Positions 10,268-36,695 of a stretch of 53,680 nt of DNA are shown here, in pieces. A program made the translations under genes and the position numbers. This DNA comes from Alphaproteobacteria bacterium. GTDB lineage: Bacteria; Pseudomonadota; Alphaproteobacteria; JAJTHO01; CANGYM01. The notes under the pieces were generated by a model that made no database searches, was not told the origin of the DNA, and saw only the letters and a list, made by a program, of their open reading frames with translations. Location of the stretch: contig CANGYM010000001.1 of NCBI GenBank assembly GCA_947458145.1, positions 1 to 53,680 of the forward strand. The letters are read 5' to 3'. How positions within the stretch are numbered: the stretch's first letter is position 1; the number at the start of each line of letters is the position of its first letter.

Positions 10268-10416
10268 AACGTGGCATCCTTTTTTTCCTAAAAAACCATG
10301 CAGGCTATGCCACAAAAAGGACAAAAAAACAAGCCTGCTGTCAAAATCATCCCTTGACCTCAAAAGCCCGTGGTTTATTGTAGGAAAACGTTTTTTTTAA
10401 AGCCATCCCATCGTTT

Positions 10417-10896
10417 ATGACCGTTTCTTTTGAATCCCGCCGCAGCATAGAACAGGTTGAAGAAGGCCATGATTTGGCGCCGAAATTTGACGAACATGGC
10501 CTGATCCCTGTGGTGACCACATCTGCTGACACCGGCGAGGTGTTGATGCTGGGCTATATGAACGCCGAAGCTCTGCAAAAAACCATCGAAACAGGGCAGG
10601 CCCATTATTATAGCCGCAGCCGCAAAATCCTCTGGCATAAAGGCGCCAGCAGCGGCCTTTTGCAACATGTCACAGAAATGCGCATTGACGATGATCAAGA
10701 CGCTGTATGGCTTAGGGTCACCATCGGCGGTAATCTGGGGGAGGCCAGCTGCCACGTCGGTTACCGCAGCTGTTTTTACCGCAGCATTCCCCTAAAACCC
10801 CTTTCAGAAAAAGTCACTCTGACCTTTGAAGAAACAGAGAAAACCTTTGACCCCGTTGCCATTTACGGGGATGTTCCCAATCCCACCATTTTATAA
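10417..10896 (+). CDS. hisI: Phosphoribosyl-AMP cyclohydrolase, monofunctional
   Basis: GLIPVVTTSADTGEVLMLGYMNAEAL...YYSRSRKILWHKGASSG...DDDQDAVW...CHVGYRSCFY matches the HisI signature. Confidence 0.9.
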   Translation: MTVSFESRRSIEQVEEGHDLAPKFDEHGLIPVVTTSADTGEVLMLGYMNAEALQKTIETGQAHYYSRSRKILWHKGASSGLLQHVTEMRIDDDQDAVWLRVTIGGNLGEASCHVGYRSCFYRSIPLKPLSEKVTLTFEETEKTFDPVAIYGDVPNPTIL

Positions 10897-10907
10897 AGGC
10901 TGTCTGT

Positions 10908-12464: not shown

Positions 12465-14489
12465 ATGAGGGATAACCGTGACCAGCTGCATGCCATTAAA
12501 AAAATTTCCCTGACCGAGGCCGTCACCTTTGGTCAAGGGGATACGGTGGACTTTACCAATCCTTTGCCACCGTTTTCTTTTGATCCGCATATCACCGCCT
12601 ACGCCACGCAGAAACACAACGAAATTGCCTATGTCATGGCGCCGCATATTGTGCCTCGGTTTTCCCTGATGGAGACACAAAACAAAATTGAGAATCCCCA
12701 TCTTCTTCAAGGGTATGCCGCCCATCCTATTCGGGTTCAAGAGACTCCCTACAGCCAAACCCTCATCATCGCCCAAAAACCTGGGGACATTTCTTTAACC
12801 TCACAAGAGGCTCGGAATTTTTTCCAAATTCACAAAAATGTGGCGGAATGGTTGATTAGGCCCATGGTTAAGATTTTGAGGGATTTTGAAGAGCTGAATT
12901 TAACCCATCGGGCTATCCATCCGGCACGCATCACCTTCGATGATTTTTCGTTTCAAAACCTAAACCTCGGATATGGTTTTTTGACACCCCCCGGTTTTTT
13001 ACAACCCGCTTGCTATGAACCTCTGCAAACCTGCTTTGCTGAACCCACAGCCCGTGGGGCAGGCCACCCAAGCTATGATTTGTATGCCTTGGGCGTCACC
13101 ATTCTCTCTTTGTTCAAAGATCCAAAATTTTTACAACCCCTTTCGTTTGCGGACATAAACAAAAGACGGCTCAGCGAAGGAAGCTATGCTTTTTTTCTTG
13201 AAAAACAAATGTTCTCCGAAAGAATTACCGAGCTTCTTAAGGGGCTTATTTGCGATGATCTGAGCCAACGCTGGACCCCTGATGATTTGGAATCTTGGGC
13301 TGATTTTAATAAAGTCCACGCGCGTTACCGCCCCCCACAAAAGAGCGCAACCAAACCTTTTGTATACCAAGGTCAAGAATACAACAGCCCTGCCTTGCTC
13401 ATTCACCAAATGGGCACAGACCACACTTGGGCCCAGGATGTTATTTTTTCTGAAGATTTCCGTGTTTGGATGCGTCGCAATGCCGGCCAACATGAAAACA
13501 CTGTTGGCATCGAAGACGCCAAGGCTTCTGCCTCTCGCACCGAAGCCAGTATACGGCAGGATGCTATTGTCTCTTATTGCCTTATGGCCTTGGATCCTGA
13601 GCGTCCTCTTTATTTTAAGGGCCTTGTCTTCACACCGGACGGGATTGGGGATCATTTGGCGGCCTACTTCTATGACACACAAAAGCGTTCTGATACTGCT
13701 GCTTTGCTCAGCAGCAAAGCCCCCTTGTTCTGGCTTTCTTTAAAAGAGCAAAAGTCCCCCCAGGTTCTGCGTTTTAACAAACTGTATCAAGAATCAGCCA
13801 ATTTTTTATCCAAACGCGGCATAGGATTTGGGATAGAGCGCTGCCTTTATGAACTCAATCCCCATGTCCCATGTCAGAGCCCCCTTTTGAATACAGTAGC
13901 GATGTATGATCGCACTGATATGCTGGAGGCTCTTAATCATTACGCCGCGCATAATCCGGGGCAACTTTCTGCGAAGCTTCCCATAGACCGTCATCTTATG
14001 GCTTATGCCGCCACACACTATGATTTTATTAAAGATGATTTTCTAAACGCCTTTCCCGATGAGAGGGCCCCCAAAGAACAAAAAATCATCGGATGCCTTC
14101 GTTTTCTTTCCTTAATTGAAAAAAACACCAATACTCAACCTTTAAAAGATCTGTATTATTGGGTGCATGATCTTAGTTTACAAAGCATCGGTATTTACCG
14201 ATCAAAAAAACGGCGTGACATGATCCAAAAATTGCTGGAATCTCAGCGCAACCCCTGTCTCATCGATCGTCTTTTGGATTGGATTGACAATACGGCTGAA
14301 AAAAAAGCGGACATGGATGAATTTATGGATGCCAAAAAGCATCATATTTATACGGTCCATAAAATCAAAGAGTGGCAGTTTAAACTGGACAATATCCGAA
14401 GCGTATCCCGTGATATTTGCGATAATTTTTCGATTTTGTTAGCGGCCTTGGGAAGCCTCTTTATGGCCGCCCTTTATCTTTTTGTTTAA
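12465..14489 (+). CDS. Tail-anchored protein-kinase-like protein (predicted pseudokinase), 674 aa, no named family recognised
   Basis: The kinase-fold C-lobe is recognisable: LIRPMVKILRDFEELNLTHRAIHPARITF (HRD loop degenerated to HRA...R), SYDLYALGVTILSLF (subdomain IX) and DDLSQRWTPDDL (subdomain XI). There is no GxGxxG, VAIK or DFG. The extreme C-terminus FSILLAALGSLFMAALYLFV is a single TM helix. The coding sequence is AT-rich. Confidence 0.6.
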   Translation: MRDNRDQLHAIKKISLTEAVTFGQGDTVDFTNPLPPFSFDPHITAYATQKHNEIAYVMAPHIVPRFSLMETQNKIENPHLLQGYAAHPIRVQETPYSQTLIIAQKPGDISLTSQEARNFFQIHKNVAEWLIRPMVKILRDFEELNLTHRAIHPARITFDDFSFQNLNLGYGFLTPPGFLQPACYEPLQTCFAEPTARGAGHPSYDLYALGVTILSLFKDPKFLQPLSFADINKRRLSEGSYAFFLEKQMFSERITELLKGLICDDLSQRWTPDDLESWADFNKVHARYRPPQKSATKPFVYQGQEYNSPALLIHQMGTDHTWAQDVIFSEDFRVWMRRNAGQHENTVGIEDAKASASRTEASIRQDAIVSYCLMALDPERPLYFKGLVFTPDGIGDHLAAYFYDTQKRSDTAALLSSKAPLFWLSLKEQKSPQVLRFNKLYQESANFLSKRGIGFGIERCLYELNPHVPCQSPLLNTVAMYDRTDMLEALNHYAAHNPGQLSAKLPIDRHLMAYAATHYDFIKDDFLNAFPDERAPKEQKIIGCLRFLSLIEKNTNTQPLKDLYYWVHDLSLQSIGIYRSKKRRDMIQKLLESQRNPCLIDRLLDWIDNTAEKKADMDEFMDAKKHHIYTVHKIKEWQFKLDNIRSVSRDICDNFSILLAALGSLFMAALYLFV

Positions 14490-14506
14490 GCAAGGTTGAA
14501 TTCTTT

Positions 14507-14977
14507 ATGTCAAAAGCGAAAACACCGCGTAAAGCGCCCAACTATAAAAAACGAAACCTCATCGTCAAAATTTTGTTTTTTATAGTTGTTTTGATCATTG
14601 GCGGTATTTCTTTTGGGGCCTTTATCATGACACTTTTTGGGGCTCTGCCGACTTTTGCAGCTTGGTATCGCGATAACAACCCGAGAAAATCCCTAGGCTA
14701 CACCGTTGGTTTAACCAACACCACCTGCATTTTTCTGGTCATTAAAGATCTCTTGCCCATGGGACAGCATTTGACGCAGGCTATGCCTTATTTACAAAAC
14801 CCTTGGTATTGGTGCATGATTTATATAGGGGCCGTCGTTGGCTATGGTATCCACAACATGACCCCCAAGATTGTCATCAAAACATTGCGCTGGAATTTTC
14901 AGGGAAAAATTCAGGAACTCAAACGAACCCAACATCAGCTGGTGCAGCAATGGGGGCCGGATGTGGTGGGGGAGTAA
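14507..14977 (+). CDS. Small polytopic membrane protein (about 3-4 TM), unknown family
   Basis: The N-terminus is basic (KTPRKAPNYKKR). Hydrophobic segments follow: ILFFIVVLIIGGISFGAFIMTLFGALPTFAAW, VGLTNTTCIFLVI and WYWCMIYIGAVVGYGI. It starts 17 nt after the previous gene. Confidence 0.55.
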   Translation: MSKAKTPRKAPNYKKRNLIVKILFFIVVLIIGGISFGAFIMTLFGALPTFAAWYRDNNPRKSLGYTVGLTNTTCIFLVIKDLLPMGQHLTQAMPYLQNPWYWCMIYIGAVVGYGIHNMTPKIVIKTLRWNFQGKIQELKRTQHQLVQQWGPDVVGE

Positions 14978-14980
14978 AAA

Positions 14981-15916
14981 ATGGTCAACATGACCCGTAT
15001 CGCTATTCTTCTGCCGTGCTACAACGAAGCGCCAACCATTGACGGTGTGGTTAGTGAATTGCGATCTGTTATGCCTGAGGCAAGCGTTTACGTATATGAC
15101 AACAATTCTCGTGATAACACCGCAGATCTTGCAAAAAAAGCAGGGGCCATTGTTCGATCTGAGAAACGCCAAGGCAAAGGCTATGTGGTGCGGCGTATGT
15201 TTTCGGACATTGAAGCTGATGTTTATGTGATGCTAGATGGGGATGCAACATACAATGTTCATGACCTTCCTAAAATGGTGGCCCTGTTAACCGACGGTTT
15301 TTATGATATGGTGGTTGGCTGCCGTGTGGCCCAAAATAAACTATCTTATCGACAAGGGCATAGCACAGGAAACAAGGTTTTCAATGCTTTGCTGAAAATT
15401 TTTTTTAACAGCCCCTTCACGGATATTTTTTCGGGCTATCGGGTCTTTTCACGTCGGTTTGTAAAATCGTTTGTACAAAACAGCAAAAAATTTGAAATTG
15501 AAACCGATCTCAGTTTGCATGCCCTTGAGCTTAGCATGCCTGTCGCTGAAATCCCCACCCCTTACTATAAACGCCCCGAAGGTTCATTTAGTAAACTAAA
15601 CACCTACAAAGACGGGCTGCGTATTTTACGGCGCATCATCATCCTCCTTAAAGATGTTCGCCCTCTGCTGTTTTACAGCGGCTTTTCGTTTCTTTTTTTG
15701 GTGGGATCCCTATTCATAGGGGTTCCTGTGATTTTAGATTTTTTCCAAACCGGCCTTGTTGAGCGTTTACCTTCGGCAATTTTGGCTGCGTCTTTGATGA
15801 TTCTGTCCCTGCTGAGTTTAACAGCAGGGTTAATTTTGGACAGTGTCGCGAAAATGAGACGAGATGCCAAAAAATTAACCTATCTCAGCATACCCCATCA
15901 GGCTGACACCCCCTGA
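14981..15916 (+). CDS. GT2 polyprenyl-phosphate glycosyltransferase (GtrB/ArnC/DPM1-like) with two C-terminal TM helices
   Basis: IAILLPCYNEAPTI, YDNNSRDNT and the LDGDATY (DxD) GT-A motifs are present. The C-terminal helices are LLFYSGFSFLFLVGSLFIGVPVIL and AILAASLMILSLLSLTAGLIL. A GGGGAG Shine-Dalgarno lies upstream, and the gene starts 3 nt after the previous stop. Confidence 0.8.
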   Translation: MVNMTRIAILLPCYNEAPTIDGVVSELRSVMPEASVYVYDNNSRDNTADLAKKAGAIVRSEKRQGKGYVVRRMFSDIEADVYVMLDGDATYNVHDLPKMVALLTDGFYDMVVGCRVAQNKLSYRQGHSTGNKVFNALLKIFFNSPFTDIFSGYRVFSRRFVKSFVQNSKKFEIETDLSLHALELSMPVAEIPTPYYKRPEGSFSKLNTYKDGLRILRRIIILLKDVRPLLFYSGFSFLFLVGSLFIGVPVILDFFQTGLVERLPSAILAASLMILSLLSLTAGLILDSVAKMRRDAKKLTYLSIPHQADTP

Positions 15917-17709
15917 ATCATCTGCGTATCCACCAAATCGCGGTACAAAGGGCACCGTTCATACAAATCGGCGTGACGTCCGCTGTCCACAATGCGTCCT
16001 TGGTCGATGACCAGAATGCGATCCATGGTTTGAACGGTGGCCAAACGGTGGGCGGCAATCAGAACCGTTTTGTCTTTCCAGTCGGTGCTCAGGATGCTGA
16101 GAAAATGGGCCTCGGATAAACCGTCTAGGGACGATGTGGGCTCGTCAAGCAGGACAATATCGGCATCTTTAAGAATGGCGCGGGACAAATTGATTTTTTG
16201 TTTTTGACCACCCGAAAGATGCAGCCCCCGAGGGCCCACAGGCATCGCAAGCCCTTCTTTATGAGACACAATAAACGGCGTTAGCTGTACATGATCCGCC
16301 GTTTTTTTCAGTGTTTCCACCGAACATGACTCAGACAACGTCATATTGTCTTGCAAACTGGCGGACATCAGAAAGGAATCCTGGGGGACATAGGCAACCG
16401 CGCGGCGCAAATCATGAACCGCCAGATCCTCGATGGGCACCCCAGCCAACGTTATCTGGCCCGATTGGGGGGCATAAAAACGCAATAACAAATCAAACAG
16501 GGATGTTTTGCCCGACCCCGACAGGCCCACCAGGGCCACATGCTCCCCCGCGTTTAAGGTCAGGGAAATCCCCTGCAAAATGGGACGATCTGGGAATTTG
16601 GGATAGGCCAAAACAACATCCGAAAACACAACCGGTACCGCCGGATGGGGCAAAGGTGTGGGCGAAGGACGATCCACAAGCGCCGGCGGGGCGTCCCGCA
16701 AATAAAACAACCGCTCGGCGGCAGCGGCGGCCTTTTGCAGCTCGCCCCCAATATCACTAAAGGCATTCAGGGATCCGGCCAGCACCAGCGCATAAAACAA
16801 AAACGCTGACAAATCCCCTGTGCTCAGGCTTCCCCTCTGCACCTGCATGGCCCCAATCCACAAAACGCCCACCACAGACACCAGAACAATCAGAATAATC
16901 AGGGATGTCATTACACTGCGCCGCGCGTTGCGCTTCACCGCCTGGGCGAACAGGGTTTGAATCAGCCCTTGATACCGATCATAAAGGGCGACTTCTTGGG
17001 TATAGGCCTGAAGGGTTTTCAGACCATGCAAAGATTCCTCAACAAAATCCGTACAATCCGCATGACATTGCTGCACCGTGCGGCTTTGATCCCGAATACG
17101 GGGGCCAAAAACGGCCAAAACCCCAAAAATCAGGGGCACCATCAACACAATAATCAGGGCCAACTGCACACTGGTGATAAACAAAAAAACAAATCCCCCC
17201 ACCACCATAATGCCGTTACGTACCGCGATGGGGATGACGGTGCCCACCACCGTTTGCAGCAGGGTAAGATCATTGCTCAGGCGGGATAATGTCTGTCCCA
17301 CCGAAAGGTTTTCAAAAAACGGGGGGGACTGACGCAAAAGGTTTTTCACCACATCCGCCCGCAGGCCCAAAACAAACGCCTCCCCCAACCAAGACACCCC
17401 GTAGGCGCGAAGAAAACTGGCCGCCGCCAAGGCAATCACCAAGGCCATCAGGCCCAAACTGGCCGGCAGCATGGAAACACCGGCCGCGGCATGAAGTCCC
17501 TTGTCCACAAAATGACGCAGCCCCTGACCCAACAAGAGCACAATAGCCGATGTGACAATGACGGCCACCGTGGCCAGAACAAAACGGCCGCGATGGGGAC
17601 GAAGATACGGCCAGACCTGAGAAAAAAAAGACGAGAGCTTGGCTTTGGCTTGGCTCACAACAGGGCCTTTGATTGGCGGGAAAACAGCCTTTTGAGACAA
17701 AGCCTTCAA
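15898..17709 (-). CDS. Fused TMD-NBD ABC exporter (MsbA/ATM1-like)
   Basis: A six-helix N-terminal domain is followed by Walker A GLSGSGKTS, signature LSGGQKQK and Walker B IVLLDEPTSSLD. The track start is a TTG 3 nt after the rpmB stop, so the true start is uncertain. The 3' end overlaps the convergent GT2 gene by 19 nt. Confidence 0.85.
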   Translation of the reverse strand: MKALSQKAVFPPIKGPVVSQAKAKLSSFFSQVWPYLRPHRGRFVLATVAVIVTSAIVLLLGQGLRHFVDKGLHAAAGVSMLPASLGLMALVIALAAASFLRAYGVSWLGEAFVLGLRADVVKNLLRQSPPFFENLSVGQTLSRLSNDLTLLQTVVGTVIPIAVRNGIMVVGGFVFLFITSVQLALIIVLMVPLIFGVLAVFGPRIRDQSRTVQQCHADCTDFVEESLHGLKTLQAYTQEVALYDRYQGLIQTLFAQAVKRNARRSVMTSLIILIVLVSVVGVLWIGAMQVQRGSLSTGDLSAFLFYALVLAGSLNAFSDIGGELQKAAAAAERLFYLRDAPPALVDRPSPTPLPHPAVPVVFSDVVLAYPKFPDRPILQGISLTLNAGEHVALVGLSGSGKTSLFDLLLRFYAPQSGQITLAGVPIEDLAVHDLRRAVAYVPQDSFLMSASLQDNMTLSESCSVETLKKTADHVQLTPFIVSHKEGLAMPVGPRGLHLSGGQKQKINLSRAILKDADIVLLDEPTSSLDGLSEAHFLSILSTDWKDKTVLIAAHRLATVQTMDRILVIDQGRIVDSGRHADLYERCPLYRDLVDTQMIQGVSA

Positions 17710-18345: not shown

Positions 18346-19128
18346 TCAAGTGGGTTTTTTGGGGGGGGCTGCATGATTTTGATCCTTCAGCTCTTGATAT
18401 TTGATATACGACAATAACGGAAACAGACCGGCGCACAGGGCGATACACAGCCCATAAACCCCTTCCTTGTACCCCTGACGTTTGACATAACAGTGAAAAA
18501 AACGGGAAAACAAACGCCGGATGTTGGGCCAAAGGCGGGTCCAATGGGGCGTATCGCCCATATCCAGGGCCTTGGCCGCGCTGTAACGGTTCAAGCGGGC
18601 GATCATGTCGGTGATGTTATCATCCACAAAATGATCAATACCGTGGGATAGGCGGGGACCCGCCAACCCCTGATAGGTCACCTGAGGATGCACCCGCTGA
18701 TCGTGCCAGTGTTTGGTGCCCTTTTGAAACAGACACCATTTGTTGCGAATCCCAAAGGATGCCCCCCAACCCTGTTTCACCAAGCGGGATCCAATATAAT
18801 TGTTGATGGGCACCAAATACCGCTGGGCTGTGGGGTTTTTTAACAGGGCCATAACCTCTTGGGCCATGGCGGGGGTCACGTGTTCATCGGCATCCACCTC
18901 CAAAATCCATGGCCCCTGACAGGCATCGATGCCTGCGTGACGGCGGGGCCCTTCACGGTCCCACGCGCCCTCGATCAATCGGGGGGTAAAGCGGGCGGCG
19001 ATGTCACGGCTGGCATCGGTGCAACGATCCAGCACCACCACAATTTCATCACAAAACCCCAAACGCGATAAACACGCGGCCAAGCGGGATTCTTCGTTAT
19101 GGGCAACAACCAAGGCAGACAGAAACAT
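18346..19128 (-). CDS. GT2 glycosyltransferase, LPS-core type (WaaE/KdtX-like)
   Basis: MFLSALVVAHNEESRL...IVVVLDRCTDAS...LEVDADEH (DxD) identifies the GT-A fold. The start is the ATG at 19126-19128, or alternatively 19167. Confidence 0.8.
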   Translation of the reverse strand: MFLSALVVAHNEESRLAACLSRLGFCDEIVVVLDRCTDASRDIAARFTPRLIEGAWDREGPRRHAGIDACQGPWILEVDADEHVTPAMAQEVMALLKNPTAQRYLVPINNYIGSRLVKQGWGASFGIRNKWCLFQKGTKHWHDQRVHPQVTYQGLAGPRLSHGIDHFVDDNITDMIARLNRYSAAKALDMGDTPHWTRLWPNIRRLFSRFFHCYVKRQGYKEGVYGLCIALCAGLFPLLSYIKYQELKDQNHAAPPKKPT

Positions 19129-19243
19129 AACGGGATCATTAACGCAGAAAGGGGCAGGATACACCAAACCCAGAAAGGGGGGTAGGAAAAAAAGAAAGAT
19201 ATTTTTATGTTAGAGCTTTGTAAAATAGGAGATTCCTATAAAA

Positions 19244-26833: not shown

Positions 26834-28141
26834 ATGTCCCTTTCCAAAGACGACGCCCGTTATCTCTGGCATCCCTTTACGCAGCACGGACATCCCGAAA
26901 CGGCTTTTTTGCCCATCCTTTCCGCCAAAGGATCCTTTCTTTATGACGAAGCGGGAACACCCCTACTGGATTTGATTTCGTCATGGTGGGTGACCACCCA
27001 CGGCCATAGCCATCCAGAATTAATCAAAGCCATGACCACGCAGGCCGCCAAACTGGATCAGGTGATTTTTGCGGGCTTTACCCATGAACCTGCCGTCACG
27101 CTGGGACGGGCCCTGCAAAGCGCATTGGGGCGGCGGGATGTGTGGAAACTTTTTTTTTCCGACAATGGATCCACCGCTGTTGAGGTGGCCCTGAAAATGG
27201 CCCTGCATGCCCAAAGCAACTGGGGCCATCCCGAACGAAAACGATTTCTGGCGTTTGAGGGCGGATACCACGGCGACACCGTGGGGGCCATGTCGGTTGG
27301 GCACAGCAGCGGGTTTTTTGATCCCTATCAAAAACTTTTATTTCCAGTTCAAACCATTTGTTATCCTGAAACTTGGTGGCATGATTCTGATGTTTTACAT
27401 AAAGAAGAGGAGAGCCTCTCAATCTTAAAGCAACACCTGAGCAGTGGAGAGATCGCCGGCATCATTTTGGAGCCTTTGCTGCAAGGGGCCTCGGGCATGA
27501 GGATGTGTCGCCCCACCTTTGTTAACCACGTGGTGCGCCTATGTCAGCAAGCGGGGGCCTTGGTGATTTTTGATGAAGTCATGACAGGCTTTGGGCGAAC
27601 GGGCAGCCTTTTTGCCTTTCACCAACTTTCAGAAACACCGGATATTCTTTGTCTGGCCAAGGGCTTAACAGGCGGCATGATGCCCATGTCTTTAACCTGC
27701 GCCAGCGAGCACGTCTTTGATGCCTTTTTATCCACCGATTTTTACCGCAGCCTGATTCATGGCCATTCCTTTACCGCCAACCCCATCGCCTGCGCCGTAG
27801 CCAACCGCTCTTTGGCCCTTTTTCAGGAGGAAGACACACTCAAAAAAATTGCCGCCCTTGAAAATGTTCATCGCCGCGCCCTTACCGCCCTAGAAAATGA
27901 TGGCTTGGCCCACCGTCCTCGGGTTCTGGGCAGCGTGGCCGCTTTTGATGTGACACATGAATGTATGCCCTATAACACCGAAAAAAATCATTGGCTTAAA
28001 TCATTATTCCTAAAATCTGGCTTTGTGCTGCGCCCCTTGGGCGGGACGCTGTATCTGATGCCCCCGTACTGCACATCGCTAAACGATTTGGAAGAGGCCT
28101 ATGGCCGCATCGCCAAGATCCTTCAGCAGGTTCGCCCATGA
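26834..28141 (+). CDS. bioA: Adenosylmethionine-8-amino-7-oxononanoate aminotransferase
   Basis: YLWHPFTQHG, SSWWVTTHGHSHPEL, YHGDTVGAMSVG and FDEVMTGFGRTGSLFA are class-III aminotransferase features with a BioA-type N-terminus. Confidence 0.8.
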   Translation: MSLSKDDARYLWHPFTQHGHPETAFLPILSAKGSFLYDEAGTPLLDLISSWWVTTHGHSHPELIKAMTTQAAKLDQVIFAGFTHEPAVTLGRALQSALGRRDVWKLFFSDNGSTAVEVALKMALHAQSNWGHPERKRFLAFEGGYHGDTVGAMSVGHSSGFFDPYQKLLFPVQTICYPETWWHDSDVLHKEEESLSILKQHLSSGEIAGIILEPLLQGASGMRMCRPTFVNHVVRLCQQAGALVIFDEVMTGFGRTGSLFAFHQLSETPDILCLAKGLTGGMMPMSLTCASEHVFDAFLSTDFYRSLIHGHSFTANPIACAVANRSLALFQEEDTLKKIAALENVHRRALTALENDGLAHRPRVLGSVAAFDVTHECMPYNTEKNHWLKSLFLKSGFVLRPLGGTLYLMPPYCTSLNDLEEAYGRIAKILQQVRP

Positions 28142-28698
28142 CGGTGTCTTCGGTGGCCTTTAGACTGCTTGGGGTATTGTTTTTGGTGACCCTGTTTTGG
28201 GTGGCTTTGGGGTTGTGGCACCGCGCCCCGCCCCCTTCTCCGGCAGCTTTATGGCTTTCCGGTCCCGAAGCCACCGTTTTGATGCAGACATTGGGGAAAA
28301 ATTTTAAAAAAAATCCAGCCATAGGGGATGATCCTGTTGCCAAAGATTTCTTTTTTCCACCTGTTCGGGGGGAAAAAGATGGATTTTGGGACGGTCTGGG
28401 GATTCTTTATCCCATAGAGCCCCTGCAGCCCATTTATGCCCCCGCGGGTGGACAGGTTTTGTTTAACCGCTCTTTGGCCGATGTTGGCCATGTTTTTATG
28501 ATTCGCCATGACGATCAACGTATCAGCGTCATCACCGGCATGGCGCAGCCGGCATTTCAAGAGGGCGATATCGTTAAAGCCAATCAAATCTTGGGTATCC
28601 CCGCAACACACACCAAAACCGTGTTTTACATGCTTCGCAATCAGGGCAAGGCCGTTGACCCACGCAAAATGTTTGATACAGTAGATTCGCCTTTGTGA
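28138..28698 (+). CDS. Membrane-anchored degenerate LytM (peptidase M23-like) domain protein, EnvC/NlpD-like
   Basis: An N-terminal TM (LLGVLFLVTLFWVALGLW) precedes an M23-like beta-core: IYAPAGGQVLF...VFMIRHDDQRISVITGM...GDIVKANQILG. The HxxxD and HxH metal ligands are not present. The start overlaps the bioA stop (ATGA). Confidence 0.6.
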   Translation: MTVSSVAFRLLGVLFLVTLFWVALGLWHRAPPPSPAALWLSGPEATVLMQTLGKNFKKNPAIGDDPVAKDFFFPPVRGEKDGFWDGLGILYPIEPLQPIYAPAGGQVLFNRSLADVGHVFMIRHDDQRISVITGMAQPAFQEGDIVKANQILGIPATHTKTVFYMLRNQGKAVDPRKMFDTVDSPL

Positions 28699-28734
28699 TA
28701 CAAGGCTGATTTGACTCTTTTGGGACCCTTTTTC

Positions 28735-30132
28735 ATGATCCGCACGCTTTCCGCCCTGTTAACCGTCTCTTTATGCTTTTCCGGCGGAGCGTACGCACAA
28801 GAGCCCAATCCAAAACAACCTGCGCCAATCACACAAGCCGCTCAAGAGACCAACAAAAACGATTCTTTTTACGAACAGCTTAATGTTTTTGGCGAAGTTT
28901 TAGAGCGCATCCGCACAGATTACGTCAAAGATACCGAGGAAAAGGACCTGATCGAGGCCGCCATTAACGGCATGCTGACCAGTCTGGACCCCCACTCGGC
29001 CTATCATAATGCCGAAGATTTCAAAAACATGCAGGTTGAACTCCGCGGTGAATTCGGCGGTTTGGGCATCGAAGTGACCATGGAAAATGGTTTGATTAAA
29101 ATCATGAGCCCCATTGATGACACGCCCGCATCCCGCGCCGGCCTGTTGTCAGGGGATTTCATCACCCACATTGATGACAAACCCGTTGTGGGCATGGCTT
29201 TGGATGATGCCGTTAAAAAAATGCGTGGCCCCGTCAACACCAAAGTGACCTTAACCATTCGTCGGGCGGACCAAGCCCCCTTTGATGTCACGCTGACGCG
29301 GGATACCATCGAAATTCAATCCGTGAAATCAGAGGTGATTGATCAGGTTGGCTATGTGCGCGTGCGCCGCTTTAATGAAAACACCTTTACGTCCCTAAAA
29401 GCCGCTTTGGAAACAATCGAAAAGAAATCCCCCAGCGTTTTGGGATATATTGTGGATTTGCGGAACAATCCAGGGGGGCCCCTGGATCAGGCTGTGTCTG
29501 TTTCGGATGCTTTTTTGGATGAGGGGGAAATTGTCTCCACCCGTGGACGTGACCCCAAGGAAATCCAGCGCTTTTTTGCCAAAAAAGGCGATCTGACAAA
29601 TGGCAAGCCCGTGGTGGTCTTGATTAATGAAGGCTCCGCTTCCGCCTCAGAAATCGTGGCCGGCGCATTAAAAGATCAGGGCCGCGCCATTTTAATCGGG
29701 GAAAAATCCTTTGGAAAAGGGTCCGTTCAATCCATCATTGCTATGCCTGGCCATGGCGCCATCCGTTTGACCACGGCGCTTTATTATACCCCCTCTGGCG
29801 TGTCCATTCAGGCCACGGGCATTACGCCTGATATTATTGTCCCCATCGCCCGCTTGGAAACACTGGATTACAAGGCCAACCGCGAATCCGACCTGATTGG
29901 CGCCATTACAAATGGTGAAACACCCGCCAATGACCAAGAGGCCCCCGAAACCAAAGACACCTTGCCAAAAGAAACACCCAAAGAAGACCAGAACCCCAAA
30001 AAAGATAATGGCAACGACAAAGGCAAGCCAGATGCTTTCACGGCCCCTGAAAAACCCGCTGATGATTATCAGGTGTCCCGTGGTGTGGATCTGGTTAAGG
30101 CGCTGGCCCTGTATAATCGCCAGAAAAAATAG
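28735..30132 (+). CDS. ctpA: Carboxy-terminal processing protease (peptidase S41)
   Basis: It has the signal peptide MIRTLSALLTVSLCFSGGAYAQ, a PDZ domain (GGLGIEV...GLLSGDFI), NNPGGPL and SASASEI...KSFGKGSVQ. I chose the ATG at 28735 over the TTG at 28711. Confidence 0.92.
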   Translation: MIRTLSALLTVSLCFSGGAYAQEPNPKQPAPITQAAQETNKNDSFYEQLNVFGEVLERIRTDYVKDTEEKDLIEAAINGMLTSLDPHSAYHNAEDFKNMQVELRGEFGGLGIEVTMENGLIKIMSPIDDTPASRAGLLSGDFITHIDDKPVVGMALDDAVKKMRGPVNTKVTLTIRRADQAPFDVTLTRDTIEIQSVKSEVIDQVGYVRVRRFNENTFTSLKAALETIEKKSPSVLGYIVDLRNNPGGPLDQAVSVSDAFLDEGEIVSTRGRDPKEIQRFFAKKGDLTNGKPVVVLINEGSASASEIVAGALKDQGRAILIGEKSFGKGSVQSIIAMPGHGAIRLTTALYYTPSGVSIQATGITPDIIVPIARLETLDYKANRESDLIGAITNGETPANDQEAPETKDTLPKETPKEDQNPKKDNGNDKGKPDAFTAPEKPADDYQVSRGVDLVKALALYNRQKK

Positions 30133-30143
30133 GAAAGCACCCC

Positions 30144-31661
30144 GTGCCCGCCACATCCTCGGATGCTGTGGAGAGGGCAACGCGGATGGAATGGCTTTAC
30201 GCCCTGACACTGTACGGCACCGTTCTGGTGTGGTGTCTTTTGCTGGTTTCAACAGAGGACTCTCGAACCATTCCCTACACAGCCCTGATGGCCATGGGGT
30301 TTATTGGGCTTTGGCGTTACGCTTGGCAAGCTTTGCACGCCCTGCGGGCCGTGACATACATTCGGGGACATTTTCCCCTTTATCGTCGGGCTGCTGATGC
30401 CCACAAAAACAACCTTCTTTTGGCTGATTATCCTTCGGTGGGATTCATTGTTCCTTCTTATAAAATGCCCCCCGCGATTTTTCAGGGCGTTTTTTCCAGC
30501 CTTTTGGCAGAAGCCCACGGGTATCCCGGCGCCGTCACCATCATTGCCGCTGTCACCACACAGGAAGAGGCATCGTGGATTCGGTCCCATTTTCTCCCCT
30601 ATTTTGAAAACAAACCGTCCCTAACCTGTGAGATTTTTTTACAAAAAGACACGGGAAAGCGGCAGGCCATGGCGCAGGCCCTATGGCGTTTAAAATCCTG
30701 CAGCCCCGTAGATCGTGTGATTTTGATGGACGGGGATACGGTTATTCGGGCAGGAACTTTGCAAAAATTGGTCGGTTTTTTTGAAACACAACCCGATTTA
30801 GGGGCCATCACCATAGACAATCGCCCCGTTTGCACAAACCATCATCGTCTGATTCAGGCTTGGTATAGCCTTCGGATGATCCAGCGGCACTGGCTGATGG
30901 CATCGATGAGTGTTTCGAGGTGCCTTTTGGTCCTGACGGGTCGATTTTCGGTGTTTCGGGGGCAACTGGCTTATGAAGATGGATTTTTACAGGCCATTGC
31001 CTCGGATAGCCTCCATCACTGGCGGCACGGACGCCTGACCATGTTAACAGGGGACGATAAATCCACGTGGTTTTATACCCTGAAGCAAGGGTGGTCTATG
31101 TTGTATATTCCCGATACCGTTTGTGAATCTATGGAAGAGCCTATTTCCCCCCATTTTCTAACGCATGCCCGCCTTTTGATGACGCGCTGGTTTGGCAATA
31201 TGATCCGCCACAGCAATCAAGCTTTGGCCCTGGGCCCCAAAAAAATCCCCTTTTTTGTATGGTGGTGCCTGCTGGATCAACGGATCTCGCCTTGGACAAC
31301 GATGATTGGCCCCACCGGTGCCTTTTTTTTGGCCCTGATTTACCACAGCGCCCTGATTCCTTTTTACGTGTTATGGGTCCTGATCAGTCGGGCAACGTGG
31401 GCCGGCATCCTGTGTATGATGCGGGGGCCTTTCCACCCGTATTTTCCGGCCCTGCTGTTTTTTGGACAGGTGTACGGGGCGGTGATCAAAATTCACACCA
31501 CCTTTCGCCTGCATCGCCAGCGATGGACACGCCAAAATTCTAGAGAATCCGAAGACACCAAAGAGCAGCGGTGGATGGCTATTGTTCTGGAATCGACCTC
31601 TTATGGGGCGTTTATCCTCGCGGTGGCGGTGGCGTCAAAATTTTTGATTCTGCGGATGTAG
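30144..31661 (+). CDS. Polytopic processive GT2 glycosyltransferase, Alg8 (mannuronan synthase)-like
   Basis: DTGKRQAMAQA, LMDGDTVI (DxD), LTGRFSVFRG, DSLHHWRHGRLTMLTGDDKSTWF, LMTRWFGNMIRHSNQAL (QxxRW-type) and FRLHRQRWTRQ are flanked by N- and C-terminal TM helices. The start is a GTG with an AGGAAA 7 nt upstream. The Alg8 resemblance is from memory of that family. Confidence 0.7.
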   Translation: MPATSSDAVERATRMEWLYALTLYGTVLVWCLLLVSTEDSRTIPYTALMAMGFIGLWRYAWQALHALRAVTYIRGHFPLYRRAADAHKNNLLLADYPSVGFIVPSYKMPPAIFQGVFSSLLAEAHGYPGAVTIIAAVTTQEEASWIRSHFLPYFENKPSLTCEIFLQKDTGKRQAMAQALWRLKSCSPVDRVILMDGDTVIRAGTLQKLVGFFETQPDLGAITIDNRPVCTNHHRLIQAWYSLRMIQRHWLMASMSVSRCLLVLTGRFSVFRGQLAYEDGFLQAIASDSLHHWRHGRLTMLTGDDKSTWFYTLKQGWSMLYIPDTVCESMEEPISPHFLTHARLLMTRWFGNMIRHSNQALALGPKKIPFFVWWCLLDQRISPWTTMIGPTGAFFLALIYHSALIPFYVLWVLISRATWAGILCMMRGPFHPYFPALLFFGQVYGAVIKIHTTFRLHRQRWTRQNSRESEDTKEQRWMAIVLESTSYGAFILAVAVASKFLILRM

Positions 31662-31917
31662 AGTTAAGAAAAAATCCATCCAATACAGACTTTAAATCCA
31701 AAGGCAGATCGCTAGGCAAGGGAACGTGACCAAAAATCATCGCCATCAGCTCTGGTTCGGGGCACTGCAAAAAAGCCTCTAACGCAGGCAAAAGATCAGG
31801 GGGGAGGTGGGGCAGAACCTCCCCCCTGACACGGTTCATCACTTGATCCAGCTCTTTGGTGCCGCGATAGGTTAAACGGTACGCTATTTTTTTTCTAAGA
31901 ACGTCCGCAGAGTCCAT
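31612..31917 (-). CDS. sdhE: FAD assembly factor SdhE (SDHAF2/Sdh5 family)
   Basis: LRKKIAYRLTYRGTKELDQVM... contains the RGxxE motif. It is followed by a ...LLPALEAFLQCPEPELMAMIFG helix pattern. Confidence 0.8.
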   Translation of the reverse strand: MDSADVLRKKIAYRLTYRGTKELDQVMNRVRGEVLPHLPPDLLPALEAFLQCPEPELMAMIFGHVPLPSDLPLDLKSVLDGFFLNSTSAESKILTPPPPRG

Positions 31918-31922
31918 AAGAT

Positions 31923-32321
31923 CTAAGCCACAGCCCGTTTTATCTGGGCATCCAAACGTCCCAAACGCACATAAATATCATTGCTGCGTTTTAACAGGAT
32001 GCGCAGTCCGTCAGGCAAGGTTTCCGAAGCCTCCTCTTCCTGAAAACGGCAAATGTCGTCGTTGGTGATGGTAAATCCCATGGCGGCAGCGTCTTCGCCA
32101 CTCATTTCCCCTTTTTGAACGGCACGTTGGGCCAACAGCCAAGACATCATTTCCAAAAGACGTGACGTTAAACGGGTGGCGTGATAGGTCATGGCCAAAC
32201 GGTCCTGAACCTTGGCGTTCTGGCGCAGTCCTGGCAGGACGAATTTGATGTAATTTTTAGCTTCACAGAGCACGTCATGAACATCTTTGTATGTGTTATC
32301 CAAAAGAAAAGCGATAGCCAT
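31923..32321 (-). CDS. rcdA: DUF1465 / RcdA-like protease adaptor (regulator of CtrA degradation)
   Basis: LAMTYHATRLTSRLLEMMSWLLAQRAVQKGEMS matches the conserved RcdA core as I recall it. An AGGAGA Shine-Dalgarno lies 6 nt upstream. Confidence 0.7.
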   Translation of the reverse strand: MAIAFLLDNTYKDVHDVLCEAKNYIKFVLPGLRQNAKVQDRLAMTYHATRLTSRLLEMMSWLLAQRAVQKGEMSGEDAAAMGFTITNDDICRFQEEEASETLPDGLRILLKRSNDIYVRLGRLDAQIKRAVA

Positions 32322-32340
32322 GAAAAGTCTCCTGATGGTG

Positions 32341-32355
32341 TTAAGGTTTTTTTAA
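32341..32355. promoter_or_regulatory. TTAA-N7-TTAA (CtrA-box consensus) upstream of rcdA
   Basis: ttaaggtttttttaa is read directly, 20-34 nt upstream of the rcdA ATG. The context is AT-rich, so a chance match is plausible. Confidence 0.25.
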
Positions 32356-33038: not shown

Positions 33039-34943
33039 ATGTCAAAGATTATTGGGATTGATTTGGGAACCACGAACTCTTGCGTGGCCTTTCGGGATGG
33101 CAACCAAACGGTTGTGATTGAAAACGCTGAGGGTGCCCGCACAACCCCCTCCATCGTGGCCTTTGCTAAGGGTGAGCGCCTGGTGGGACAACCCGCGAAA
33201 CGCCAAGCCGTCACCAACCACAAAAACACCATTTTTGCGGTCAAACGCCTGATTGGTCGCCGTTTTGACGATCCGTTGACCCAAAAAGATCAGGGGATGG
33301 TCCCCTATAGCATTATTAAGGGCAACAATGGAGATGCTTGGGTTGAGGCCGAAGGCACACCCTATTCCCCCAGCCAAATCAGTGCCTTTATCCTGCAAAA
33401 AATGAAAGACACGGCCGAGCGCTATTTGGGCGAAACCGTGACGCAGGCTGTTATTACCGTTCCCGCGTATTTTAACGATGCCCAGCGCCAAGCCACACGG
33501 GATGCCGGAAAAATTGCCGGTCTGGATGTTTTGCGGATTATTAATGAACCCACGGCCGCTGCTTTGGCCTATGGTCTGGATAAAAAATCCGGCGGCAAAA
33601 TTGTTGTTTATGACTTGGGGGGCGGAACCTTTGATGTTTCCGTTCTGGAAATCGGAGATGGCGTTTTCGAAGTCAAGGCCACCAACGGCGATACGTTCTT
33701 GGGCGGCGAAGACTTTGACAACCGGATTATTGATTATCTGGCGGCAGAGTTTAAAAAAGACAACAGCATTGACTTAAAAGCTGATCCTTTGGCCCTGCAG
33801 CGCCTGAAAGAGGCAGCAGAAAAAGCCAAAATTGAACTGTCCAGCTCGGTGCAAACCGACGTCAACCTGCCCTTTATTACCGCAGACCAAACGGGACCCA
33901 AGCACCTGAATGTGCCCCTAAGCCGCGCCAAATTGGAATCGTTGGTTGAGGACCTTTTGCAGCGCACGATGGAGCCGTGCAAAGCCGCCCTTAAAGATGC
34001 AGACCTGAAACCGTCTGACATTGACGAAGTGATCTTAGTGGGGGGCATGACCCGCATGCCCAAAGTCCAAGAATTGGTCAAAGCCTTTTTCGGCAAAGAA
34101 CCCCACAAAGGCGTCAATCCTGATGAAGTGGTGGCCATCGGCGCCGCCATTCAGGGGGGTGTTCTGCGGGGGGATGTCAAGGATGTGCTGCTTTTGGACG
34201 TCACCCCTCTGTCTTTGGGGATTGAAACCTTGGGCGGTGTGTTCACGCGCCTGATTGAACGCAACACCACCATTCCCGCCAAGAAAGGCCAAGTCTTTTC
34301 CACCGCCGAAGATAACCAGAATGCGGTGACCATCCGTGTATTTCAGGGTGAACGGGAAATGGCTGCTGACAATAAACTGCTGGGGCAGTTTGATTTGATG
34401 GGCATCCCCCCCGCCCCTCGCGGCATGCCACAAATCGAGGTCACTTTTGACATTGACGCCAACGGGATTGTGAATGTTTCGGCCAAAGACAAAGCCACGA
34501 ACAAAGAGCAGCAAATCCGCATCCAAGCGTCCGGCGGCCTGAGCGATGCCGACGTGGAAAAAATGATCAAAGATGCCGAGGCCAACGCAGAGTCCGACAA
34601 AAAAAAACGTGAACTTGTGGAACACCGCAACCAAGCCGAAACCCTGATCCAAACAGCCGAGAAAAACTTGGCAGAGTACGGATCCCACGTTTCAGACGCT
34701 GAAAAACAGGCCATTCAAACGGCCATCACCGATCTGAAAGCGGCGCGGGAAACCGATGATGTGTCTCTGATCACAGAAAAAACCAGCACCTTGGCCCAAG
34801 CCACCATGAAATTGGGCGAAGCCATGTATAAGGACCAGCAAGAGAACGCCTCTTCTGAGCAGCCTTCCAATACCAACCAAGGTGAAAACATCGTTGATGC
34901 TGATTTTGAAGAGGTCAATGAAAACGACAAAAAATCCGCCTAA
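33039..34943 (+). CDS. dnaK: Chaperone DnaK (Hsp70)
   Basis: [27 protein letters not shown] and [14 protein letters not shown] chose the ATG at 33039 with an AGGGAA Shine-Dalgarno; the track start 32913 is upstream of the promoter. Confidence 0.98.
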
Positions 34944-34950
34944 AGATCAA

Positions 34951-34976
34951 GGGGGTCGGAGGGTCCCCTTTTTTTT
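34951..34976 (+). terminator. Rho-independent terminator after dnaK
   Basis: GGGGGTC-GGAG-GGTCCCC forms a 7-bp stem including two G-U pairs. It is followed by T8 (34969-34976). Confidence 0.7.
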
Positions 34977-35004
34977 ACGCCCCTTTTCCCATATTTCTCG
35001 TTTT

Positions 35005-36294
35005 TTGCGGCAAGTGTCGCCCCAGAGCCTTTTGGGGCGGTCTTTTTTAATCATGGCCCTACCCATCATTTTGGCACAGGGCGCCACCAGCTATGTTTTT
35101 TTCAACCATCATTGGGATACACTTGAACGGCGACTGGCCATAACCTTGGCCAACGAAATGGTCATGCTGGTGCAGGCAGAGGCCAAAGCCCATCCCCACG
35201 TCCCCGATATGGCCGCCGCTTTGGATATTGATTTCACTCGCAGCACCCCTTCCTCAAAAACCGATACCCGCCACAGTGTTTTGGGATGGCTGACCTCTCT
35301 GTTTGATCAGGAAGGCATGCTGCGGCGCGAGCTGGAAAGCCGACTTCCTTATCCCCTGACGGTGGAAACCAGCAAAAGCTGGGTCAGGGTTACGGTGTTT
35401 TTACCCCAGCATCAAATCACCCTCAGCACCACGCCCAAAAAGATTTTTTCCAGCACGGTCTTTGTTTATGTTCTGTGGTCTGTTGGGCTGTGCATCCTTC
35501 TGGTTGTGGTGGCTTGGGGGTTTATGCGCAACCAGATGCACCCCATACGCGACTTGGCCATGGCCGCCGAGGCCTTTGGTCAAGAGGGCACCCCCAAACG
35601 CCTAAAACCCCGCGGGGCCTTAGAAGTCCGCAAAGCCACTCGCGCCTTTAACACCATGCAGGACAATATCCTAAAAAACGTGGCCGAGCGCACGGAGATG
35701 CTGGCCGGCATTTCCCATGATCTTCGCACCCCATTAACCCGCCTGCGTCTGGCTCTGGAAATGACACCGGAAGACATTAAGCAGGACATGCTGCCCGATG
35801 TTTTGGAGATGCAGGCCATGATCGATTCCTATCTGGCCTTTGCGCGGGATGATCAGGGGGAAGACTGGCAATGTGTGGAACTGAGATCTTTTTTAGACAC
35901 CTTGGCATCCTCTTTTGAGGTCGAAAAACTAAAGATTTTACCCAGTGATTCTGTCAACGTCCGTGCCAAACCCCTGTTGTTGCGGCGATGTTTGGTAAAT
36001 CTGATCAACAACGCCCTCACCTATGGCACCCTGTGTACCCTCAGCATTCAGGGCCACAAAGGATATGTGGACATCACCGTTGCCGATAATGGCCCAGGCC
36101 TGACCCCAGAGGCCTTTGAGCGAGCCAAAACACCCTTTGTTCGTTTGGAAGATGAGCGTCCCGTTGTGGCGGGCCACGTGGGGCTGGGTTTATCCATTGC
36201 CGAGGATATTGCCAAACGGCACGGACATCCTTTGCGTTTAGAAGCAGAAAACGCCAAGGGCGCCAACATTACCCTGCGGCTTTCCCCATGGTGA
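35005..36294 (+). CDS. EnvZ-like sensor histidine kinase (2 TM, HAMP, HisKA, HATPase_c), orphan
   Basis: H-box MLAGISHDLRTPLTRL, N-box LINNALTYG, G1 DNGPGL and G2 GLGLSIA. The start is uncertain: TTG 35005, GTG 35014 or ATG 35053. The track start 34882 lies inside dnaK and upstream of its terminator, so I rejected it. Confidence 0.85.
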   Translation: MRQVSPQSLLGRSFLIMALPIILAQGATSYVFFNHHWDTLERRLAITLANEMVMLVQAEAKAHPHVPDMAAALDIDFTRSTPSSKTDTRHSVLGWLTSLFDQEGMLRRELESRLPYPLTVETSKSWVRVTVFLPQHQITLSTTPKKIFSSTVFVYVLWSVGLCILLVVVAWGFMRNQMHPIRDLAMAAEAFGQEGTPKRLKPRGALEVRKATRAFNTMQDNILKNVAERTEMLAGISHDLRTPLTRLRLALEMTPEDIKQDMLPDVLEMQAMIDSYLAFARDDQGEDWQCVELRSFLDTLASSFEVEKLKILPSDSVNVRAKPLLLRRCLVNLINNALTYGTLCTLSIQGHKGYVDITVADNGPGLTPEAFERAKTPFVRLEDERPVVAGHVGLGLSIAEDIAKRHGHPLRLEAENAKGANITLRLSPW

Positions 36295-36695
36295 TTCGTC
36301 CACACACTCCAGACGATGGGCCCGCGCTTTGGACTTTACACCAAAAAACGGGCCTGTCCCCCTTTCATCAATCAGAATTTGGAAACTGGCTGAAGCAACA
36401 TATCACTTGGGTTGCCGTGTGGCAGGGGAACCTTGCTGGTTTTGTATTGATCCAAGACACCCTCGATCATCAGGATGTGCTGCTTTTGGCTGTGGATCCC
36501 CTATATCGTCGCCAAGGCATCGCACGCAGCCTGCTGCAAACGCTTTTCCCGCTCAAAAAACCGCTTTTTGTTGAGGTTGAAGACACAAACACCGATGCCA
36601 TGAACCTGTACCAAACCTTGGGCTTTCAACCCATAGGAGGGCGGCACAATTATTATGGTCCCAGCCGCCATGCGTTGGTCATGCGTTTGCAATAA
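36288..36695 (+). CDS. rimI: GNAT N-acetyltransferase, RimI-like
   Basis: LLAVDPLYRRQGIARSLL is the acetyl-CoA Q/RxxGxG/A motif, and ...NTDAMNLYQTLGF follows. It overlaps the kinase stop by 7 nt. Confidence 0.7.
   Translation: MVIRPHTPDDGPALWTLHQKTGLSPFHQSEFGNWLKQHITWVAVWQGNLAGFVLIQDTLDHQDVLLLAVDPLYRRQGIARSLLQTLFPLKKPLFVEVEDTNTDAMNLYQTLGFQPIGGRHNYYGPSRHALVMRLQ

Follow-up and report, generated by a model that had tools for sequence, protein, structure and literature searches.

Judged by its sequence, the 505-aa glycosyltransferase encoded at positions 30144–31661 of a 53.7-kb stretch of DNA from a freshwater alphaproteobacterium (the whole of which we call the window) is a member of the Alg8 family of polysaccharide synthases, and it has no Alg44-like co-polymerase gene beside it. 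This orphan state is conserved in a clade of lake bacteria and is exceptional for the family. We put at somewhat under an even chance the reading that the protein, here termed GT2, is a functional synthase-translocase of the Alg8 family and operates without a classical Alg44 encoded in cis. Below, we set out its sequence, genomic setting, selection, predicted fold and relatives, and weigh at each point the other explanations that the data would allow.

Identification of an Alg8-family glycosyltransferase

The initial annotation described a polytopic GT2 enzyme at this position, and the open reading frame is indeed intact, lies on the + strand and opens with a GTG start codon. Pfam recognizes its product through generic membrane-GT2 models only (Glyco_tranf_2_3, 8.6e-21, residues 97–351; Glyco_trans_2_3, 6e-11). 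All NCBIfam matches are below threshold (NodC, 28.1 against a cut-off of 550; PgaC, 25.5 against 422; TIGR03111, an XrtG-associated GT2, 26.7 against 364) and, with NodC and PgaC at 25–28 bits against cut-offs of 422–550, no other GT2 subfamily emerges as a best profile match. The same library gives no match even for authentic Pseudomonas syringae Alg8. Because NCBIfam holds no model that recognizes Alg8, we used BLASTP against an authentic Alg8, together with a phylogenetic tree, in place of an Alg8 HMM. Authentic alg8 loci were fetched from Pseudomonas genomes, with an Alg8 sequence serving as bait only, and the P. syringae gene at 9878–11359 of locus L113, flanked by algD and alg44 in the order algD-alg8-alg44-algK-algE-algG-algX-algL, was taken as the reference. 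GT2 aligns with this protein over 458 aa at 32% identity and 53% positives (E 1e-78, 13 gaps), and the alignment is collinear from the first transmembrane helix to a C-terminal FRLxRQxWTRQ string. The resemblance to Alg8, which the initial annotation had proposed, is thus borne out against an authentic sequence.

Alg8 (KEGG K19290), the GT2-family mannuronan synthase of Pseudomonas and Azotobacter alginate operons, has the same length as GT2 and a collinear sequence, and the two share the TGKR, DxD, TGDDKS and RW(F/Y)GN motifs as well as the C-terminal string. In contrast to Alg8 of the alginate operons, GT2 sits in what appears to be a housekeeping operon. Orthologues of GT2 already carry the label ‘glycosyltransferase Alg8’ in JGI.

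Catalytic motifs and clade-specific substitutions

Every string that the initial annotation had quoted is found in the protein: GLWRY (residues 55–59), DTGKR (169–173), LMDGDTV (194–200), LTGRFSVFRG (264–273), DSLHHWR (288–294), LTGDDKSTWF (301–310), LMTRWFGN (345–352) and FRLHRQRWTRQ (454–464). The D, DxD, D, QxxRW motif set read from them needs one amendment: the DxD, TGDD and RW elements stand, whereas the first ‘D’ is a glutamate in the group of eight lake sequences to which GT2 belongs, which we denote the lake clade. Four motifs, all encoded on the + strand, are placed by the alignments: TGKR (T170–R173; 30651–30662), DxD (D196-G197-D198; 30729–30737), TGDDKS (T302–S307; 31047–31064), which covers the region of the catalytic base and corresponds to TED of BcsA, and R348-W349 of the QxxRW-type motif in LMTRWFGN (31185–31190). 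In alignments of 72 and of 87 sequences, G171, K172 and R173, D196 and D198, D305, K306 and S307, and R348 and W349 are invariant. Of 89 positions with at least 90% conservation among partner-linked homologues in the 87-sequence alignment, the lake clade retains 80, all catalytic motifs included.

The glutamate in question, E142 (30567–30569, + strand), aligns with the first conserved aspartate of the family, D132 of P. syringae, both in the 87-sequence alignment and by BLASTP. At this position all eight lake-clade sequences have Glu and 92% of the others in the 87-sequence alignment have Asp. A +1 offset makes the counterpart in P. aeruginosa D133, a residue that Remminghorst and colleagues are said to have reported in 2009 to be essential for Alg8. 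In sequence terms, the replacement of Asp by Glu is a conservative change.

E142 is one of eight family-conserved positions that are altered in the lake clade (D142E, A273G, P334V/I, N357S, G369P, R359Q, V134I and L387M). R359Q and L387M each occur in half of the lake-clade sequences, and V134I is conservative. N357S, G369P and R359Q cluster directly past the RW motif. A nearby segment also differs from that of P. aeruginosa Alg8, in which the stretch E322-H323-P-P-E326 has been mutated (PMC4436075); its equivalent in GT2 is E331-E332-P-I-S335.

Position at the end of a housekeeping gene block

GT2 is the last gene of a tightly packed block on the + strand. The block begins with bioA (26834–28141), encoding adenosylmethionine-8-amino-7-oxononanoate transaminase (NCBIfam TIGR00508, 495 bits against a cut-off of 405), continues with a gene for a short, membrane-anchored M23/LytM-domain protein of 186 aa (28138–28698; Pfam PF01551) and then with ctpA (28711–30132), which encodes an S41 C-terminal processing protease with a PDZ domain (Pfam, NCBIfam) and is the conserved upstream neighbour of GT2 across loci L001–L006. 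The end of bioA and the start of the M23 gene share 4 nt, and the next two junctions are gaps of 12 nt and 11 nt. GT2 had been placed 12 nt behind ctpA; it does follow ctpA directly, with a spacer of 11 nt (30133–30143, + strand; GAAAGCACCCC), and a Shine-Dalgarno-like AGGAAAG overlaps the ctpA stop codon. It had likewise been described as converging on sdhE (31612–31917, − strand; Sdh5 flavinator, Pfam PF03937, gene call in L081), which is correct with the addition that the two 3′ ends overlap by 50 nt. We regard sdhE as outside the system and as marking its downstream limit. All genes of the window are of housekeeping character, comprising priA, dnaB, kup, bioA, M23, ctpA, GT2, sdhE, rcdA, dsbB, dnaK, an EnvZ-like kinase gene, rimI, tkt, thrS, dnaJ, dnaE and others.

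A promoter and terminator scan gave nothing convincing within the bioA–GT2 block or 3′ of GT2. Metatranscriptome contigs from lakes, derived from strains 90–97% identical, cover ctpA; several fall inside GT2 and one spans the ctpA/GT2 junction (29115–30265). These contigs, which are unstranded, of low depth and possibly affected by DNA carry-over, suggest that GT2 is expressed and that it is co-transcribed with ctpA. The window corresponds to a contig in the freshwater metagenome ENA ERZ27280167, and the same sequence is present in many lake metagenomes.

Conservation in the lake clade

Orthologues of GT2 with 67–91% identity are encoded in six species-level MAGs named ‘Alphaproteobacteria bacterium’, most of them recovered from Lake Mendota. 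All six share the order bioA-M23-ctpA-GT2, and the gene downstream varies between sdhE, enolase and rplA. Outside the six MAGs, no CtpA comes closer than roughly 50% to that of this lineage, which argues that the lineage is deep-branching and uncultured. A 53%-identical relative of GT2 (P0011), on a 404-kb contig, is an orphan as well, with no partner within 10 kb; it lies directly upstream of a kinase–rimI pair, and in the window the same pair lies 3 kb downstream.

The reading frame is intact in all eight lake lineages. Pairwise dN/dS among the GT2 orthologues ranges from 0.07 to 0.25 at dS values of 0.17 to more than 1.6, and such ratios, at synonymous divergence up to and beyond saturation, indicate that GT2 has long been kept by purifying selection. 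These data bear directly on the notion that GT2 is a functionless, decaying remnant of a lost alginate-like cluster. GT2 does evolve faster than its neighbours (67–91% identity against 85–97% for CtpA) and its nucleotide-binding Asp has been replaced by Glu, as might be expected of a gene in decay, but the uninterrupted frames, the dN/dS ratios across saturated dS, the invariant catalytic motifs and the detection of transcript fragments all run counter to it. We consider such decay extremely improbable: on dN/dS and motif conservation we reject a pseudogene or relic, and that reading is largely refuted.

Predicted structure of GT2

The AlphaFold2 model of GT2, built with 72 homologues, has a mean pLDDT of 89.8 and a pTM of 0.89. 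It comprises a GT-A domain with two helices on its N-terminal side, a long helix that bears the RW motif and four more helices towards the C-terminus, so that in the model the fold of a membrane-embedded synthase is present, with its N-terminal transmembrane helices, GT-A domain, interface helix and C-terminal transmembrane bundle. Foldseek ranks the hyaluronan synthases 8smm, 8smp and 7sp7 (TM 0.60–0.63) first among PDB entries, followed by BcsA, chitin synthases and plant cellulose synthases, all with a probability of 1.00. Taken together, the model and these matches predict for GT2 the architecture of a synthase that polymerizes and translocates its product. No Alg8 structure was found in PDB searches by sequence (phmmer) or by fold (Foldseek), and the ranking of hyaluronan synthase as the top fold match is probably general to Alg8 proteins and not specific to the lake clade. 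The phmmer search of PDB sequences with GT2 as query returned a chance match to LacI as its sole result and no hyaluronan synthase at E ≤ 1.

Hyaluronan synthases (HAS) are established GT2 enzymes that polymerize and translocate without a partner subunit. The class I enzymes (Chlorella virus HAS and Xenopus HAS1) are similar in size to GT2 and match it at TM 0.60–0.63 over about 500 residues, with an identity of 13–16% in the structural alignment, a likeness in fold only and without family membership at the sequence level. Nothing indicates alternating-sugar chemistry for GT2. BcsA and GT2 share the GT-A domain, interface helices, a transmembrane channel and equivalents of the D, DxD, TED and QxxRW motifs, at a query-normalized TM-score of only 0.44–0.53. 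Unlike BcsA, lake-clade GT2 lacks both a C-terminal PilZ domain and a BcsB-like partner.

The structural comparison also helps to judge whether GT2 might make no polymer at all and instead produce short oligosaccharides, or glycosylate a lipid or other envelope acceptor, in the manner of NodC or of a glycolipid synthase. Its weak profile similarity to NodC and PgaC would agree with such an activity, as would the non-processive membrane mannosyltransferase 6yv7 among the fold matches, the operonic position with envelope maintenance genes and the lack of any outer-membrane export or modification gene nearby. However, the NodC and PgaC scores fall far under their cut-offs, the full-length fold matches are processive synthases, and both the RW-type acceptor motif and the C-terminal transmembrane region in its entirety are conserved and align collinearly with Alg8. 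An enzyme of this non-polymerizing kind seems improbable to us.

Absence of alginate partner genes nearby

In alginate clusters (algD-8-44-K-E-G-X-L-I-J-F-A), alg8 is linked to the genes for AlgD, AlgG, AlgX, AlgL, AlgK and AlgE, none of which was found around GT2 in the window. The initial annotation had noted that no alginate partner gene lies nearby, and by tblastn, Pfam and an Alg44 HMM this holds for the entire window: Pseudomonas AlgD, Alg44, AlgK, AlgE, AlgG, AlgX and AlgL as tblastn queries have no match across its 53.7 kb, and Pfam finds no PilZ, BSH, AlgD, AlgK, AlgE, AlgG, AlgX or AlgL among its genes. In the same tblastn comparison AlgD was matched in 54 other loci and in none of the window and L001–L006. 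Nothing indicates that the product is alginate: AlgD and the modification, lyase and export genes are absent locally and the nucleotide-binding Asp is changed.

The polymerase pair of alginate producers consists of Alg8 and Alg44, the latter a PilZ-TM-BSH co-polymerase encoded by an adjacent gene that has no counterpart beside lake-clade GT2. Because many partners escaped tblastn when Pseudomonas Alg44 was the sole query, we turned to an HMM derived from 63 partners that lie adjacent to other members of the family. With this model, an Alg44-like ORF lies directly adjacent to the synthase gene and on the same strand in 77 of the 79 non-lake Alg8-like loci, and in none of the eight lake-clade loci, the window included. 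The two non-lake exceptions are a locus that ends 132 nt past the synthase (L079) and one in which an unrecognized 324-aa ORF occupies the partner position (L024).

Pseudomonas Alg8 is inactive without Alg44, and the two proteins interact physically (PMC4436075, PMC3815931); this argues for a partner, and a synthase able to do without Alg44 would break with the family pattern. GT2 could accordingly belong to an ordinary split system, one of the two alternatives raised in the initial annotation, in which the chromosome encodes a PilZ co-polymerase of the Alg44 type at another site, perhaps along with AlgD and the export and modification proteins, and only the gene order is odd. We treat this as a serious possibility, to which we assign appreciably less than an even chance. 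Besides the dependence seen in Pseudomonas, the coupling in 77 of 79 loci argues that the Alg8–Alg44 pair is functionally obligatory, the 80 of 89 retained positions may include interface residues, and the MAG contigs examined make up a small part of each genome. Against this, adjacency is so nearly universal in the family that an arrangement in trans would itself be exceptional, two lineages that are 53% identical both have no partner within 10–30 kb, and otherwise near-invariant positions past the RW motif are altered (N357S, G369P and, in half of the sequences, R359Q). The uniqueness and ancient conservation of the loss of linkage, combined with the substitutions near the RW motif, argue for a GT2 that works independently of Alg44.

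Evolutionary origin of the orphan synthase

Of the homologues that are 34–41% identical to GT2, most lie in clusters of the alginate type, where algD precedes the synthase gene, an alg44-like gene follows it and algG, algX or algL is nearby; such clusters are carried by, among others, Rhizobium, Allorhizobium, Roseibium, Devosia, Cohaesibacter and Rhodobacterales. Neighbour-joining recovers the lake clade as monophyletic in 200 of 200 bootstraps, and in 175 of the 200 the group nearest to it is made up of sequences from among Grimontia, Enterovibrio, Parasalinivibrio, Bacterioplanes, Roseomonas and Halioxenophilus. The synthases of this nearest group belong to two-gene modules, in which a gene for a PilZ(+BSH) protein of 511–576 aa lies immediately upstream of the synthase gene and overlaps or abuts it. 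By tblastn, the alg8-like products of these minimal alg44-like→alg8-like modules (Grimontia, Enterovibrio, Halioxenophilus, Roseomonas, Bacterioplanes) are 37–40% identical to GT2, no AlgK, AlgE, AlgG, AlgX or AlgL is found at the modules, and AlgD is matched at the Bacterioplanes locus only. We know of no characterized example of such a module. The Roseomonas synthase gene is adjoined by a gene for a family-14 polysaccharide lyase.

Whereas the two-gene modules keep the PilZ(+BSH) gene upstream of the synthase, the lake clade has ctpA in that place. That the nearest relatives are two-gene modules points to loss or relocation of the upstream partner; in the simplest history, the lake lineage began from such a module.

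The slot that the synthase came to occupy can be traced in other Alphaproteobacteria. A Sphingomonadales MAG and two Devosia genomes have, in order, a gene for a long, coiled-coil, EnvC-like M23 protein, ctpA, a gene for a PF04748 divergent polysaccharide deacetylase (YibQ-like) and a NUDIX gene. In the lake clade GT2 fills the slot of the YibQ-like deacetylase gene, which suggests that the synthase is tied to an envelope-maintenance transcription unit and not to a regulated exopolysaccharide locus. The M23 homologues of other Alphaproteobacteria are 419–715 aa long and that of the lake clade is reduced to 186 aa. One might speculate from the synteny that this short M23 protein serves as a substitute periplasmic partner of the synthase; its LytM motif looks degenerate by eye.

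Proposed mechanism

In the mechanism that we propose, GT2 would be a membrane-embedded inverting synthase whose cytoplasmic GT-A domain binds a nucleotide sugar through E142, TGKR and the DxD motif. The Asp of TGDD would act as the catalytic base while the acceptor end is held on the tryptophan of the RW motif, and sugars would be added singly to a growing beta-linked chain. The chain would then be extruded through the transmembrane channel of GT2 itself into the periplasm, as in hyaluronan synthase and BcsA. Processivity, translocation and the nature of the product are expected here by analogy, from the family and from the structures of those two enzymes. In the history of the lineage, the GT2 gene would have separated from that of Alg44 and come to stand last in the envelope-maintenance block bioA-M23(LytM)-ctpA; it would be expressed together with ctpA, and its product may be a periplasmic or envelope-associated glycan, which need not be alginate. 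With no classical cis-encoded Alg44, gating by PilZ and c-di-GMP would probably be absent.

In its fullest form, this proposal makes the lake-clade enzyme an Alg44-independent, self-sufficient, HAS-like synthase-translocase, ungated by PilZ and c-di-GMP and constitutively co-expressed with CtpA and the LytM factor, that builds, in a widespread freshwater lineage, a periplasmic or envelope glycan not described before. We regard this full combination as rather unlikely to hold in every part. Should the genome encode a partner at another site, the finding would shrink to an unusual gene order.

How Alg44 activates Alg8 has been described as unclear in mechanism (PMC3815931, PMC4436075). A natural Alg8 relative that has long been without a neighbouring Alg44 would offer a useful comparison for asking where in the synthase the dependence on the co-polymerase lies. 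GT2 could also be a simpler, single-subunit enzyme for in vitro study or for the production of uronic-acid-type polymers, and it points to a new envelope glycan in a lake lineage that is present in many freshwater metagenomes.

Genomic contexts of Alg8-like synthases

Alg8-like synthases of other bacteria occur in alginate-type clusters, in minimal two-gene modules and as fusion proteins. Clusters of the first kind (L019–L075, for example L042, L049, L062 and L067), in which algD-alg8-alg44 is accompanied by algG, algX and algL, are common in Rhizobium/Allorhizobium, Roseibium, Devosia, Cohaesibacter and Rhodobacterales, and their AlgD proteins share about 47–50% identity with P. syringae AlgD.

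The two-gene modules were found in Grimontia/Enterovibrio, Halioxenophilus, Bacterioplanes and Roseomonas (L165, 8418–11509; L166, 8357–11515; L167, 7833–11296; L008–L014 and L018). Each consists of a gene for a PilZ(+BSH) Alg44-like protein of 511–576 amino acids followed immediately by the Alg8-like synthase gene, an order inverted relative to the alg8-alg44 arrangement of Pseudomonas. Searches of these loci with tblastn returned no match to AlgK, AlgE, AlgG, AlgX or AlgL, and matched AlgD solely at the Bacterioplanes locus, L018; a family-14 polysaccharide lyase adjoins the Roseomonas gene. To our knowledge, none of these modules has been characterized.

Certain Alg8-like synthases carry a fused C-terminal extension of about 300–400 amino acids, giving proteins of 796–922 amino acids in total (L007, 958–3708; L056, 9962–12685; L065, 9830–12544; L077, 9890–12658; L078, 4814–7204; also the homologues P0022 and P0036). 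P0022 has a precomputed Pfam match to PF12708 (pectate lyase superfamily), to which AlgG-type epimerases and lyases belong. The hosts are Thermoleophilia, Leptolinea, Desulfovibrionaceae and one alphaproteobacterial metagenome-assembled genome, and at every such locus an Alg44-like gene also lies beside the synthase.

Low-GC stretch of the window

GC content falls to 43% at 14–16 kb of the window, compared with about 52% elsewhere. The low-GC region (12465–15916; also 15898–17709 (−) and 18346–19167 (−)) encodes a 674-amino-acid protein that matched no Pfam family, a 156-amino-acid protein of no known kind and a GT2 whose closest models, AglJ and a dolichyl-/polyprenyl-phosphate hexose transferase, scored 199 bits, below the cut-off of 325. 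Its neighbours are an MsbA-related ABC exporter and a second small GT2. At the same place, contig L162 from a close relative holds another gene set, an NAD-epimerase and a GT2 with GT2_TM_C, and the low-GC region looks like a strain-variable glycan island.

Genes flanking the synthase

The gene 5′ of ctpA (window 28138–28698) encodes an M23/LytM protein, which in the lake clade (eight freshwater alphaproteobacterial Alg8-like sequences without an adjacent Alg44-like gene) has only 186 amino acids, comprising a transmembrane helix and a LytM domain. The EnvC-like M23 proteins of other Alphaproteobacteria (L173, 2718–3977; L176, 2111–3658; L194, 1781–3928), by contrast, have 419–715 amino acids and contain coiled coils. 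Read by eye, the metal-binding His residues of LytM appear to be substituted in the lake-clade sequence. The YibQ-like PF04748 gene, the usual 3′ neighbour of ctpA in other Alphaproteobacteria, is missing from that position in the lake clade.

On the sdhE side, a single metatranscriptome contig (X26, 1,023 nt; window 31324–32343) runs from within the 3′ end of the synthase gene through sdhE into rcdA. In these unstranded data, X26 fits either an sdhE-rcdA transcript reaching antisense into the synthase gene or read-through of a synthase transcript. A terminator scan also located a G/C-rich 14-bp hairpin (GTCAGGGGGGAGGT...ACCTCCCCCCTGA; window 31795–31830 (−)) within the sdhE coding region.

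In the 53%-identical relative (L163, 10001–13190), the synthase gene abuts a gene for an EnvZ-like HAMP-HisKA kinase, with rimI next in line. The window has this kinase-rimI pair as well (34882–36695), 3 kb downstream of the synthase gene and beyond dnaK. Its proximity to the synthase in both loci may be a relic of an older linkage between the synthase and the kinase.
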